Shown piece by piece: positions 1,081-58,010 of a stretch of DNA of 64,000 bases. Under the pieces are notes generated by a model. That model saw nothing but the letters and a program-made list of their open reading frames with translations, ran no database searches and had not been told where the DNA came from. Source of the stretch: Eledone cirrhosa (lineage: Eukaryota). The stretch is from contig OZ024747.1 in NCBI GenBank assembly GCA_964016885.1, positions 12,772,001 to 12,836,000 on the forward strand, given 5' to 3'. A program made the position numbers and the translations under genes. The number at the start of each line of letters is the position of its first letter. Position 1 is the stretch's first letter.

Positions 1081-1135
1081 TAGCTGTCTGATGAGGTCAT
1101 AACTGTTGCATAACAGTTACCATCGAAAGCGATTG
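1081..1135 (+). ncRNA. Truncated hammerhead-ribozyme-like motif
   Basis: CTGATGA (1088), stem TAACTGTT-gcat-AACAGTTA, then GAAA (1125). Stem III and the stem I 3' strand are missing where the CRE-like fragment begins. Confidence 0.45.
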
Positions 1136-1145
1136 TAAACCCTCT

Positions 1146-2078
1146 GTGTTCAGAGAACGTGAGGCCGCCTGTGAGACGTGGGACCGGCTGGGACTTAGCC
1201 CAGTAGACGTCCCTCCTCCTTCTCCCTCTGTTGACGTCAAGTCCTCCCCAACGCACTTGGGATGCCATCCAGTGCAGCCTGGCCTCAGACAGGCTCACGC
1301 GCCAGCTCGACCAGCACCGCCTGCTTGTTTTCGTGCGGCCTCAAAACCCCACAGTGGTGCCTGGCTCCATGCTCTGCCCTCCTTCTCCACTGGCACGCAG
1401 CTAGACAACCATAGCCCGCGAATCGGCGTTTCCCTGAGGCTCGGCCTCCGGATCTGCCAGCCACACCAATGTCGCTGCGGTTCCACCGTGGACTCTTTCG
1501 GCCTCCACCCGCTTTCCTGTCGCCACAATGCCGGCCGCATTCCACGCCATACTGCCCTCAACGAGGTCATTAAGCATGGCTTGGACGCTGCAGGCTTCCC
1601 TTCCCAACTCGAGCCAGTGGGGCTGGATCGAGGGGACGGTAAAAGGCCAGATGGCATGACCATCTTCCCGCTCCGCGGTGGCAAACCCCTCGTCTGGGAT
1701 GCCACTTGCTCCGACACTTTCTGCAGCCGCAACCTGGTGCAGTCTGCGACTGACCCAGGTTCTGCTGCACGTCGGGCTGAGGGGGCCAAACTCCTCAAAT
1801 ACTGGTCGCTCTCCTACAGGTTTGCGGTCGTCCCCCTGGCACTGGCAGTGGAGACTTCTGGTGTCCTCAGCCCCAGGGCTACCTCCTTACTCACCACCAT
1901 AGGCGCTGAGCTGGCCAGCCGCAGGTGTGAGCCCCGCGAGTTGGAGAGGCTTTTCCAGCGCGCCTCCCAGTCTGTCCGCCGGGGCTGTGGGTGGGCCCCA
2001 TCGCGTACCAATACATTAGTTAAATACCGTTCTTTCATCTGACACAACACAATAAAGACAGTGTGAAACATTAAAAAA
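1146..2078 (+). mobile_element. 5'-truncated CRE-like non-LTR retrotransposon (zinc knuckle + restriction-like endonuclease C-terminus)
   Basis: ORF 1146..2042 shows SGAWLHALP, C-x-C..H..C (CRCGSTVDSFGLHPLSC), RH, KRPDG, LVWDAT, AExxKxxKY, VETSG and LFQR motifs typical of CRE-clade RLE elements. AATAAA and an A-run precede the (TA)n tract. Confidence 0.85.
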
Positions 2079-14187: not shown

Positions 14188-14190
<3 letters not shown>

Positions 14191-14390
14191 GGAAAATGTT
14201 TAACCCCGACGGCAGAGCTCAAGCCGTTTCGAGGGCTATTTCAGTCCAGAAATAGCCGTCGAAGCGGCTTGAGCTCTGCCGTCGGCGTTAAACATTTTCC
14301 TATTACCCACTCTACCACTCTACTACCCTAAGTATTGAGTACTCTGGTGCGTTATGGTCCATCTGGTTCCTTACCACACTTCCTTCGTTT
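14188..14390 (+). mobile_element. Fold-back Penelope-like pLTR remnant with hammerhead 3' half (family H1)
   Basis: Near-perfect hairpin 14188-14303 with arms containing GAAA-CGGC-loop-GCCG-TC-GGGG, then a tail with TATTGAGTAC. Flanked by (TA)n. Homologous to 25304 and 57792. Confidence 0.7.
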
Positions 14391-24823: not shown

Positions 24824-24999
24824 CGTTATTCCGGGTTGAATCGGAGGTAACCACAGTAAGTAAGGTACTCAATACATTGCAGAGTATAAAAGTTTTAATA
24901 TAGATGAGATTCTACAGGACTAGAACTGTTTCATTCTTTAGAAATCATCAGGAATCACTGAAATTCCTGATGATTTCTAAAGAATGAAACAGTTCTAGT

Positions 25000-25003
<4 letters not shown>
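24824..25003 (-). mobile_element. Fold-back Penelope-like remnant (family H2)
   Basis: Hairpin 24916-25002 and tail with TATTGAGTAC, between (TA)n tracts. Homolog at 50097-50273. Confidence 0.75.
24908..24956 (-). ncRNA. Type I hammerhead ribozyme motif
   Basis: GATTC-CTGATGA-tTTC taaa GAAt-GAAA-CAG ttctagtc CTG-TA-GAATC. All three stems pair, cleavage triplet GUA, U-U at the base of stem II. Confidence 0.75.
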
Positions 25004-25305: not shown

Positions 25306-25494
25306 CGAAGGAAGTGTGGTAAGTAACCAGGTGGACCATAATGCACCAAAGTACTCGATACTGGGTAGTAGAGTGGGTAATACGAAAAGAGTCAGGACCC
25401 CAACGGCTGAGCTCCGGTCGTTTCGATAGCTAGTTCAGATCTAGCTGTCGAAACGGCCGGAGCTCAACCGTTGGGGTCCTCACTCTTTTCCTAT
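25304..25494 (-). mobile_element. Fold-back Penelope-like remnant with hammerhead 3' half (family H1)
   Basis: Hairpin 25379-25494 with GAAAC(G)..GCCGT arms and a GAGTAC tail, between (TA)n tracts. Confidence 0.7.
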
Positions 25495-27783: not shown

Positions 27784-27845
27784 GCTGTAAGTTTGAACTT
27801 TATTCATATATATATGTTTTTGCATGTCAGATTCAAACTTACAGC

Positions 27846-27899
<54 letters not shown>

Positions 27900-27978
27900 G
27901 CTGTAAGTTTGAATCTGACATGCAAACACATATATATATGAATAAAGTAAGCCCAAATAGCACAGAGAGAAAGAGGGA
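27654..27978. repeat. Nested inverted repeats centred on (TA)n tracts
   Basis: TCCCTCTTTCTCTCTGTGCTATTTGGG..CTTACAGCATT-(AT)n-AATGCTGTAAG..CCCAAATAGCACAGAGAGAAAGAGGGA, with a partial internal duplication. Confidence 0.85.
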
Positions 27979-28089
27979 GAGAGGGGGAGGGGGGAGAAAT
28001 GAGGTGCAACAGAAATGAAACATGGTTAAAATATAGTCTAGATAGCTGTGAAACAAAACGAGGATGTAGTTTATGGAACACCCAAATGA

Positions 28090-28550
28090 TTTAGAAGTCG
28101 ATCTTAAGTCGGAGCAATAACATTAAGAAAGACATGAAGGACACCACAACACTTTGTTTTGAAAATTTTGAAAGTAGGTTTATAAGTATGAATTTTCATA
28201 AGATTGTTGTAGTTGTCTCTGTGGCCTATCGGTAGGTACTAGACACGGTGAAGATCCTGGCCTTGGGTTCAATCCTGGCCTTGGGTTCAATCTTGGTCAG
28301 TTTTTATTTTACAATCAATAGAAAAAAAAACTGAAAAGGTTAACCAGGAACCCTACCCCGACCAGGATCAAACTTCAGACCAGGATCACCACCGTCTATA
28401 ATTCCTCCAACTAGGCCACCGAGTCAGTTACAAAAGTATAATGAAAATTGATAATTATAAACGAACTTTCAAAATCAAAGTTAAAAAGATGTGGTGAGGT
28501 TCATGGTTTTCCTAGAGCTATTAGTAATATTTAGGGTCGACTTCTGGTCA
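28090..28550. mobile_element. Degenerate fold-back element with tRNA-like A/B boxes
   Basis: The left half (AGAAGTCGA..TTTGAAAGT..TGGCCTATCGG..GGGTTCAATCC) mirrors the right half (GGATCA..TAGGCCA..ACTTTCAAAA..TCGACTTCT). Confidence 0.5.
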
Positions 28551-28705
28551 TTATTGAAAGTCTCTGGATTTCGCAAAATGCATAATATTTTTTATTGGAG
28601 AAGGTAAGATATTTTTCCGCAAAAATTTGATTGCAGTGTTTTGTTTCCACTTATGTATTTTTCGAAAATGTTATTTATTCATAAGTGGAAACAAAACAGT
28701 GCAAT

Positions 28706-33215
<4,510 letters not shown>

Positions 33216-34559
33216 ATGTGACGGCCTATTGCATTATATGGTTATTCATTGTTTTTTTTATTTTTTCTTATAATTAATTGTGTGCGTGCGTATGTAGGTT
33301 GTCCATGGTCCCCGTCTCTCAGTAATAAAGATGGGAAGAAACGACAACTCACGTGCACAGAGACACATACACAGACACAGATACACATTGTTAGCTTATA
33401 ATCGTTGTGAACCTTATTCAGAAATTCAGAAAGTGTTTGTGAAGACTAGGTTGTCTGTCAAATTAAATCTTCTTCAGTGAAAAATCCTCCATTGTAAAAC
33501 TTCAAATACCATAACAATAACTCCGGGATATACAATAATGAAGACAGGTTACGAAATGCAGTATGCTTGTCCTTGTTGCATATTATAATATAGCTGTTTC
33601 TATTATAATATAGCTGCTGTTTGATATTGGAGATGAAAGAGATTATTGTTTGCCCAAGAAGAGAATAAAAACGAAAAGATACAAAGGAAAAAGGTAGACA
33701 GAAGCTTTTCTCTAGTATACTTTAGTTACTACAATAATTGTTGAAATATTCTGCTAGTTGATTAATGGTTAATAACACCAAATACAGACCTTTTCTGAAC
33801 AAACGAAACAAATATCTAATATTATCAATAACGACTATAATTGGATTAACGAAATGTTTTACGAAGGAGATATTATTCTGAGAAGCTTTTAGACAGAAAT
33901 ATTTTAAGTAATTTCGTTCATTGACGGAATCTACATCAAATAAAATAGAATATTCTTTAGTTGCTTGGAAACTCCAACTTTAAAAAGAAACGTTAACCTG
34001 CAAATATTGCAATATGTCTGAGGACAATATTATTATAATCATCTTTATATTAATACTACCGTTGTTTGAAACTATATAAATACCTGGGTATTGTACGTGT
34101 ATGTCACGCTAAGGGAACCATCTGAAACAGAATAAGAGACAGACAGTTGATAGTCTTAGTTGTAATGGCGGCCTTGATGATGTTGGTGATGATGAATGGT
34201 GGTAGTGGTGGTGGGGCTGGCAGTGGAGATGTTAGGGATGATAATGATAAATGGTGCTGGGGGGGTGACCGACCTAGCAGAACTTCGGGCAATTATCAGC
34301 AACGAACTCTTGAGCCGACCAAGAGCGAAAGTCTTTTAAAGGACACAGAGAGAGAGAGAAAGAGAGAGAGAGAGCGAGAGAGCGAGCGATATATATATAT
34401 ATAGAGAGAGAGAAACAGAGAGGGGGGGAGAAGGAAGAAGAAAGCAGCAGTTAAGGTTAAACCCCTTCAAGTTGATAAAATTATGGGATCTATCTTCTCC
34501 CAACCTTAAACGGAAATTGTCATTTCAACTCAGTGACCAGTGATGACTTGAAGGGGTTG

Positions 34560-50096: not shown

Positions 50097-50273
50097 TGAT
50101 ACCGAGTTGAATCACGGCTAACCACAGTAAATAAGGTACTCAATACATGTGTAAGTGATGACAGATTTATATAGAAAAGGCTTCTACAGGACTAGAATTG
50201 TTCCATTCAAAGGAAATCATCAGGAATCCTGATGATTTCATACGAATGAAACAGTTCTAGTCCCGTAGAAGCC
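50097..50273 (-). mobile_element. Fold-back Penelope-like remnant with two opposed hammerhead motifs (family H2)
   Basis: Hairpin 50179-50273. The plus arm reads CTGATGA-tTTC atac GAAt-GAAA-CAG..CCG-TA-GAAGCC. The tail is homologous to 24824-24900. Confidence 0.75.
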
Positions 50274-50348: not shown

Positions 50349-50540
50349 ATTGGCGACTGAGAGAAAAGAGTACTCAATATCGAAGTAGAGTTTGAATATT
50401 CATTTTATTAAAGCTGAATAGTGAGTCTTGTTTCTCTGGAGTTTCATCTGTTTATCACCGTGTTTATTTAATGACCCTGTGATAAACAGAGGAAACTCCA
50501 GAATAACAAGTCTTACTGTTTAGCCTTAATAAAAGAGTAT
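50348..50540 (-). mobile_element. Fold-back Penelope-like remnant (family H3)
   Basis: Hairpin 50403-50535. The consensus of the two arms gives GAAA-CTC-ca-GAG-TA. Tail with TATTGAGTAC. Confidence 0.6.
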
Positions 50541-57379: not shown

Positions 57380-57580
57380 ATTGGTTTCTACTGTAGGCAC
57401 AAGGCCAGCAATTTTGGGGGAGGGGAAAGTCGATTAAATCAACCCAGTGCATGACTGGTACTTTATTTTATCGACCCCGTAAGGATGAAAGGCAAAGTGA
57501 ACTCAGATTATAAAGGGCCGTAACTCTCTGCTGCAAAGCATGGCGTCCGACCCTCTACCGATACTGCCAATCCACCGCCC
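57380..57580 (-). mobile_element. SINE family A (long subtype, small internal deletion)
   Basis: Consensus match. TSD TGGTGTATAAATATTG. Confidence 0.9.
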
Positions 57581-57723: not shown

Positions 57724-57791
<68 letters not shown>

Positions 57792-57795
<4 letters not shown>

Positions 57796-58010
57796 AGAGT
57801 CAGGACCCCCACGGCTGAGCTCCGGCCGTTTCGACAGCTAGATCCGAACTAAACCAGTATACTGCTGGCTTAATGCGGATCTAGCTGTTGAAATGGCCGG
57901 AGCTCAGCCGTCGGGGTCCTGACTATTTTCTTATTACCCACTCTACTACCCTAAGTATCGAGTACTCTGGTGCGTTATGGTCCAGCTGGTATTTTACCAC
58001 ATCTTGTTTG
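57792..58010 (+). mobile_element. Fold-back Penelope-like remnant with hammerhead 3' half (family H1)
   Basis: Hairpin 57792-57930 with GAAA(C/T)GGC-cggagctca-GCCG-TC-GGGGTCC and tail AAGTATCGAGTAC. (TA)n flanks. Confidence 0.72.

Follow-up and report, generated by a model that had tools for sequence, protein, structure and literature searches.

Palindromes in the window

The window, a 64,000-nt stretch of the Eledone cirrhosa genome (assembly GCA_964016885.1, contig OZ024747.1, positions 12,772,001 to 12,836,000), contains three short palindromes of one family, H1, at 14188-14303, 25379-25494 and 57792-57930 (copies 1 to 3), whose arms are 91%, 89% and 85% complementary and whose folding z-scores against shuffles are -19, -17 and -15. 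Each adjoins (TA)n on at least one side, and a 27-mer of the arm has 2,605 exact matches in the 3.0-Gb genome of the same animal, with none for the reversed control. A preliminary description of this DNA had picked out the three palindromes and had read in each arm the order stem II 3' strand, GAAA, stem III, GUC and GGGG, with apexes that differ and the CUGANGA half absent, i.e. the 3' half of a GUC-type hammerhead within an inverted pLTR, and all of this was borne out. The three are 5'-truncated head-to-head copies of the terminal repeat (pLTR) of a Penelope-type element (PLE). In the numbering used here the G of GAAA is 0, the 3' strand of stem II is -13..-1 and loop II is -42..-14.

14188..14242, minus strand: copy 1 tail-less arm, subfamily group b, ending at -12 in the stem II 3' strand
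14240..14387, plus strand: copy 1 tailed arm, starting at the predicted initiator A (14243, -18)
25306..25433, minus strand: copy 2 tailed arm, subfamily a, ending at -9
25431..25494, plus strand: copy 2 tail-less arm, starting at -18/-19, with the predicted initiator A at 25432
57790..57860, minus strand: copy 3 tail-less arm (subfamily a), which begins at the short 3' end and stops at -31 in loop II
57859..57860, no strand: copy 3 junction, a 2-nt AT overlap common to both arms
57859..57932, plus strand: copy 3 tailed arm, from the 3' part of loop II to the stem I 3' strand (stem II 3' strand 57877-57889, GAAA 57890, then stem III and the stem I 3' strand)
after 57912, plus strand: predicted ribozyme cut in copy 3
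57933..58009, plus strand: copy 3 tail, +43 to about +120
50349..50535, no strand: palindrome belonging to H2, a second family, and bearing one tail (50349-50402)
24916..25002, no strand: palindrome of a third family, H3, retaining CUGAUGA
50181..50270, no strand: second H3 palindrome, retaining CUGAUGA

The tailed arm of copy 1 possibly starts up to 3 nt earlier, via TTC microhomology, and in copy 2 it is the tail-less arm that reaches further 5'. The pivot had been placed inside stem II; that describes the shorter arms of copies 1 and 2 (-12 and -9) but not their longer arms, which end in the loop (-18 to -21), nor copy 3, both arms of which end at -31, in loop II. The copy 3 type of junction was found again at loci L447 and L449. 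The element at 50403-50535, to which the same geometry had been ascribed, is a palindrome (arms 81% complementary), but of another family, and its right arm retains part of the core, both stem II strands and GAAA (50492), so that it pivots differently.

The tails at 14304-14387, 25306-25378, 57933-58009 and 50349-50402, together with those of H3, have in common a motif around TATTGAGTAC, preceded by CTCT-rich sequence, that is a candidate protein-binding site setting both of the start sites considered below. Other features of the window are a different interspersed repeat beside copy 3 (~57400-57580, also in L056 and L128), a perfect inverted repeat around a (TA)n spacer (27819-27926) that is unrelated to families H1-H3, and a very AT-rich (GC 4-15%) satellite-like array of several kb (~28000-33300). 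At L041, L065, L123, L158, L324 and other loci, different families stand back to back in one (TA)n run, which suggests that the same microsatellites are targeted repeatedly.

The parent element

Longer copies extend 5' through a complete hammerhead into a 3' UTR and then an ORF. Many have open frames near 784 codons, some in ~3.53-kb tandems, and one encodes 717 aa comprising RT, a CNC-x5-C linker and, C-terminally, GIY-YIG. Its translation contains YRDD and VIY...YIG, and also RWR (RWK-like), DKT and CNCPDRSIC; by eye there is no endonuclease CCHH, a Pfam search of this ORF gave no match, and the protein has 1,826 relatives at E<=1e-30. A (TA)n target, a pLTR with hammerhead, tandem and inverted copies and a tail at one end, all traits of the Hydra clade, are present. 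Judged by motif match to the clade definition in the available text of PMC8557442, the parent is a Hydra-like Penelope element. According to that same text the likeness takes in the single ORF with RT and C-terminal GIY-YIG, the RWK-like (RWR), DKT and CxCX5C motifs, the pLTR hammerhead, (TA)n, partial tandems, an inverted 5'-truncated copy and a one-ended tail, whereas here the unit is ~3.5 kb, the tail ~80 nt rather than 30-40, stem II is 11-13 bp with a ~30-nt loop that holds the predicted start, and mini palindromes are present in thousands. The element type, its inverted pLTRs, tail and ribozyme are already known. Arrays in which as many as four near-identical 3.53-kb units follow one another head to tail (L371, at G000:C1:437197500-437207400, and similar loci) are consistent with circular or read-through templates and with recent activity.

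Arms were measured in two sets, A (80 elements chosen by tail pattern) and B (an unbiased 82, met off-centre in sampled loci, in the window and in 180 kb beside it), leaving out elements <330 nt from the edge of a locus, those scoring under the cut-off and those in loci selected for long copies. The 3' ends of insertions in set B are concentrated at two positions, +42 (38/124 arm ends) and +122 (39/124), both of which are start sites used by kilobase-long copies too. Since the tail of a full-length copy continues as 5' UTR and then ORF, an ATG standing at about +212, these 3' ends lie near the 5' end of the message, as they do in PAc (PMC11167929).

The ribozyme

For the long copies a complete type I hammerhead is predicted, with cleavage predicted after GUC. 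All six subfamilies fold in this way, with a stem II of 11-13 bp and a loop of ~30 nt, and across 20 long copies 87% of 440 cells are paired as against 24-48% in slid controls. Five pairs show a double change, among them the core pair 3-8 (UA 14, CG 2, UG 1 of 20); the compensatory changes in stem II and at 3-8 track subfamilies, which makes them few independent events, and a pair-count covariation measure was not above shuffles (351/500). Full copies do carry the missing half, as the preliminary description had expected, though not as the GGACCCC-CTGANGA it had envisaged: they read GGAC, a bulge and CCCC, then a YUGANRA core, frequently in its U3-A8 variant UUGAYAA (1,201 matches to one pattern; the YUGAGGA form has 14). 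CTGANGA at 5-35 nt from GAAA had 11 matches, none in helix context, the real spacer being ~56 nt. Rfam gave no hammerhead match on long copies, nor was there one among the 150 matches listed. PLE hammerheads, including the U3-A8 variant, have been described (PMC4209133), and its accessible text agrees with what is seen here in the type I fold within the pLTR, the long helix II and U3-A8 covariation; helix III here is, however, a full hairpin of 4-5 bp and not the minimal palindromic form.

Arm ends are not in excess at the predicted cut site (+23; 4/225, with neighbours 2-7). A non-LTR retrozyme, consisting of tandem monomers each with a whole hammerhead, was considered and set aside, the short copies being head to head and without the 5' half. 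In b3 (L249, L255-L270), the youngest full-length subfamily, many copies have a G-U mismatch in stem III with the core intact. Another possible hammerhead in the window (1088-1165) reads CTGATGA, hairpin, CGAAA.

One tail, two arms

Of 106 short palindromes, 103 carry exactly one tail. Which arm reaches further varies: it is the tail-less one in 44, the tailed one in 34, with 25 within 2 nt of each other, or 13, 14 and 14, respectively, in set B. The arms share their family group in 136 of 137 cases, and the two within a palindrome resemble each other more closely than random pairs do (0.053 vs 0.121 for b; 0.120 vs 0.136 for a), a likeness that fits one RNA but also fits the proposal of the preliminary description. 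There, a single cDNA ends shortly beyond stem II, folds back onto the hairpin and self-primes the inverted arm; breakpoints do cluster in the stem II domain, and self-priming has been proposed for PLE palindromes in the part of PMC3846280 at hand. A longer tail-less arm, however, means that neither arm contains the other, and therefore that one folded cDNA cannot make the palindrome, copy 2 being a case in point, and the tail-less arm is the further one in 44 of the 78 asymmetric cases. Snapping back also needs a cDNA that has reached the 5' strand of stem II with the natural loop kept, yet in sets A and B together none of 264 arms ends in that strand (22 reach it), and the pattern of such a product has just three matches genome-wide, none with a natural loop (one subfamily's loop being covered). 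With the ribozyme being crossed in 25 of 26 ORF-bearing loci, and with H3 palindromes that retain CUGAUGA pivoting upstream of it (both considered below), self-priming on stem II is scarcely credible.

Were the palindromes instead amplified as units from a few palindromic masters, SINE- or MITE-like? Junctions do recur, the partner arm ending at -14 in 12 and at -16 in 6 of 70 loci. The recurrent junction nevertheless has its tail on either arm and in different subfamilies, most junctions are distinct, and both outer ends are the start sites that kilobase-long copies use as well, so that master copies seem very improbable. The centres of palindromes are deletion-prone, and an apex might have been removed asymmetrically, once the element was inserted, from what had been a longer palindrome or a single folded-back cDNA; in favour of this the microhomology or templated inserts at many junctions could be cited. 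But more diverged palindromes are not more asymmetric (rho -0.03, n=137; 0.10, n=105), and deletion leaves unexplained a non-genomic G at one fixed base, which is present also at arms bordering unrelated flank; this too is quite improbable. Two cDNAs, joined, are the preferred reading.

The partners of long arms tend to be long as well. Among 60 long arms a partner was present at the locus in 26 rows, and 19 of these partners (16 of 23 distinct elements) extend past -78, as against 18 of 121 arms in set B; not one of the partners terminates at -18 with G.

Where the arms end

The preliminary description had looked to a sharp peak of breakpoints within stem II. The distribution is indeed sharply non-uniform, with the peak in loop II. 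In set B the 3' strand of stem II holds the ends of 24 of 94 arms (0.022 per nt) and -16..-14 those of 10 of 70, while at -21..-17 a stop is seen in 34 of the 60 that reach there (0.154 per nt), with 7/26 in the rest of loop II and 0/19 in the stem II 5' strand. The peak coincides with a TYAGT motif in loop II, 18 nt before GAAA, that is nearly invariant across the six subfamilies while the surrounding loop diverges, and whose position is identical although it is base-paired in group b but unpaired in group a. TCAGT is an initiator consensus. For pLTRs, initiator-like motifs or a start site have been reported (PMC3846280, PMC2377424, in their available portions). Group b has TATA-like TATTTAAA/TATTTATT 29-31 nt upstream; group a has no TATA-like sequence there, and no downstream promoter element was seen by eye at +28.

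The ribozyme structure is itself no stop for the enzyme, because the 5' pLTRs of ORF-bearing loci cross the site. In these loci, a non-random choice that may include tandem units and is made up of the top protein matches to a young subfamily, 25 of 26 with a 5' pLTR cross the loop II site (p=2e-6 vs 26/60); overall, the 5' pLTRs of 30 such loci comprise 4 that end earlier, 22 that pass the whole ribozyme, 3 that end at -52..-60 and 1 at -21. Retrovirus-like strand transfer using the -18..+22 redundancy was also considered, and with a constant success rate it is disfavoured, the ribozyme being passed in 22 of 26 second encounters versus 18 of 60 first ones.

Some arms pass -18 by a few bases, to -21..-25. 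Of the 71 arms extending to -31, 18 have that very position as their end, the next base being T in 11, C in 6 and G in 1; another 4 end at -32, 3 with G. Position -31 probably acts as a sink for TA-like microhomology, which either a minor start further upstream or long template may supply. A minor start at -32, which would explain copy 3, is suggested by 3 of 4 arms.

An extra G

For arms that start at A(-18), T or C is the genomic base immediately ahead. The base found before the end has a G:A ratio of 11:1 at -18 as compared to 18:40 at other ends (p=1.4e-4). Genome-wide, group b has 6,645 matches with a purine before A(-18), and the first 100 listed have 88 G and 12 A. In 70 group-b loci the G is explained by the partner arm in 23 and was scored otherwise in 37, with A in 8; the other inserted bases in these loci are 41 G versus 78 A. 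Of the G cases scored as untemplated (31 or 37), about six or seven trace to the partner once one point mutation is permitted. The G stands on both arms in several elements, and certain arms that carry it border unrelated flank. Subfamily a is weaker, with C 57, G 32 and A 11 by eye in the first 100 listed of 1,228. For L1 and SVA an untemplated 5' G has been attributed to copying of the cap (PMC3287187, available text). A fixed 5' end, a non-genomic G and a core-promoter position, as would be left by running off a capped end, occur together here, more weakly in subfamily a.

An uncapped end could perhaps serve as well. Reverse transcriptases add C at template ends, and the G could be such a terminal-transferase addition at a wall where, in loop II, RT stalls or RNA is broken endonucleolytically, with two cDNAs again being joined. 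Immediately upstream of -21, subfamily a contains a GC-rich inner hairpin, and the hazard is still raised as far as -31. Against a stall or break are the identity of position whether the site is unpaired (a) or paired (b), its crossing in the ORF-bearing loci, the lack of G excess at other ends and the H3 wall 29-30 nt behind a TATA, and on balance it is unlikely.

H3 as an independent replicate

In long copies of H3, TATAAATA precedes, by 29-30 nt, a purine that sits just 5' of the ribozyme core (10 rows, of which two are one element). For this family the G was predicted beforehand, and the first 100 listed of 1,426 matches, read by eye, have 81 G, 10 T and 9 A. In 30 loci, 22 have G, of which 9 are partner-explained and 13 otherwise, 4 of these 13 lying beside unrelated flank; among the 8 loci lacking G, 3 hold long copies in which a point change has occurred. 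The pivot of H3 palindromes is upstream of an intact ribozyme and behind the TATA, and therefore tracks the predicted start and not stem II. At 3 of the 30 loci the arms are joined via the natural complement of stem I, so that a ribozyme helix can supply pairing; this is the sole place where the helix-supplied pairing of the preliminary description applies.

Proposed paired priming and run-off

We consider it probable that the palindromes are paired short cDNAs, head to head, that ran off the 5' end of an RNA and were inserted in (TA)n. What is seen directly is the element's identity, the two 3' ends, the one tail, the -18 peak, the extra G and the recurrence in H3. Both ends of the cut target would prime RT at two internal starts, +42 and +122, and both cDNAs, probably from one RNA, would run to the 5' end of a capped mRNA and off it, with transcription starting at -18 and the extra G being a copy of the m7G cap. 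The 3' ends of the cDNAs would be trimmed and joined via 0-4 nt of microhomology or short inserts; hence the differing apexes and that either arm can be the longer. For arms ending 3' of -16, i.e. most second arms, trimming is an assumption. With the predicted start inside loop II, the capped message would hold only the 3' half of the ribozyme, because of which CUGANGA would be missing from the short palindromes, and long copies would likely derive from read-through or circular RNA without an end at -18. Against run-off at a cap is copy 3, with its ends at -31 on both arms.

A wider scheme is offered more tentatively. PLEs may integrate by paired priming, in which a dimeric enzyme makes one cDNA per fixed site on a single RNA, one from each target end, the inverted pLTR being the joint. 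With the H1 promoter inside the ribozyme, capped message would be unable to self-cut and read-through RNA able to, so that the ribozyme would sort message from long template, and the mini palindromes would be strong-stop-like fossils that map the start to the base. This arrangement would also suggest how an element can retain a self-cleaving ribozyme in the region of its promoter.

Relation to known systems

The origin of PLE inverted repeats and of the one-sided tail is posed as an open question in the available text of PMC8557442, and the standing proposal for the repeats is self-priming (PMC3846280, likewise in part). The latter has in common with the present data head-to-head inverted pLTRs, palindromic junctions, TATA and initiator-like motifs, but invokes self-priming on an antisense template, while the data here fit two sense-templated cDNAs with a fixed 5' end. 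In vitro, PAc protein, a predicted dimer, cuts and extends both strands from two internal starts (PMC11167929, accessible text). As in this Poseidon PAc, two internal RT starts bound the tail and the template spans the pLTR-ORF junction; there the start site is alike on both strands, and here there is one start of each kind in 103 of 106. Inverted repeats and the cap are not addressed in the part of that work available, nor are cap-marked PLE palindromes in the available parts of 10.64898/2026.07.22.740005, PMC12029980 and PMC13282606. Among literature titles and abstract openings, with subscription papers and supplements lying outside the search, neither a cap-derived G nor paired priming for PLE inverted repeats was found, and no cap-marked run-off palindromes, one-tail pairing statistics or start inside the ribozyme.

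The thousands of insertions in this genome discriminate between models for PLE inverted repeats, with predictions to the single base for the transcription start, the copied cap and the use of two start sites as a pair. Cap run-off followed by joining would likely explain how PLEs acquire inverted ends. Among the MITE-like hairpins of animal genomes, it is further suggested, a large class consists of retro-products, usable to map PLE promoters without RNA.

In L1 twin priming both target ends prime on the RNA, and the cDNA ends are joined by microhomology. Two-end priming with microhomology joins is thus common to L1 and the present elements, but here the two cDNAs overlap and duplicate one sequence, and from two fixed starts the cap would be reached after 60-140 nt. 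An extra G at full-length 5' ends is a further likeness to L1 (PMC3287187, in the text available). At L059:230-1600 the inverted arm is a non-overlapping upstream segment (the end of RT, endonuclease and 3' UTR), an inversion resembling L1 twin priming from a further internal site.
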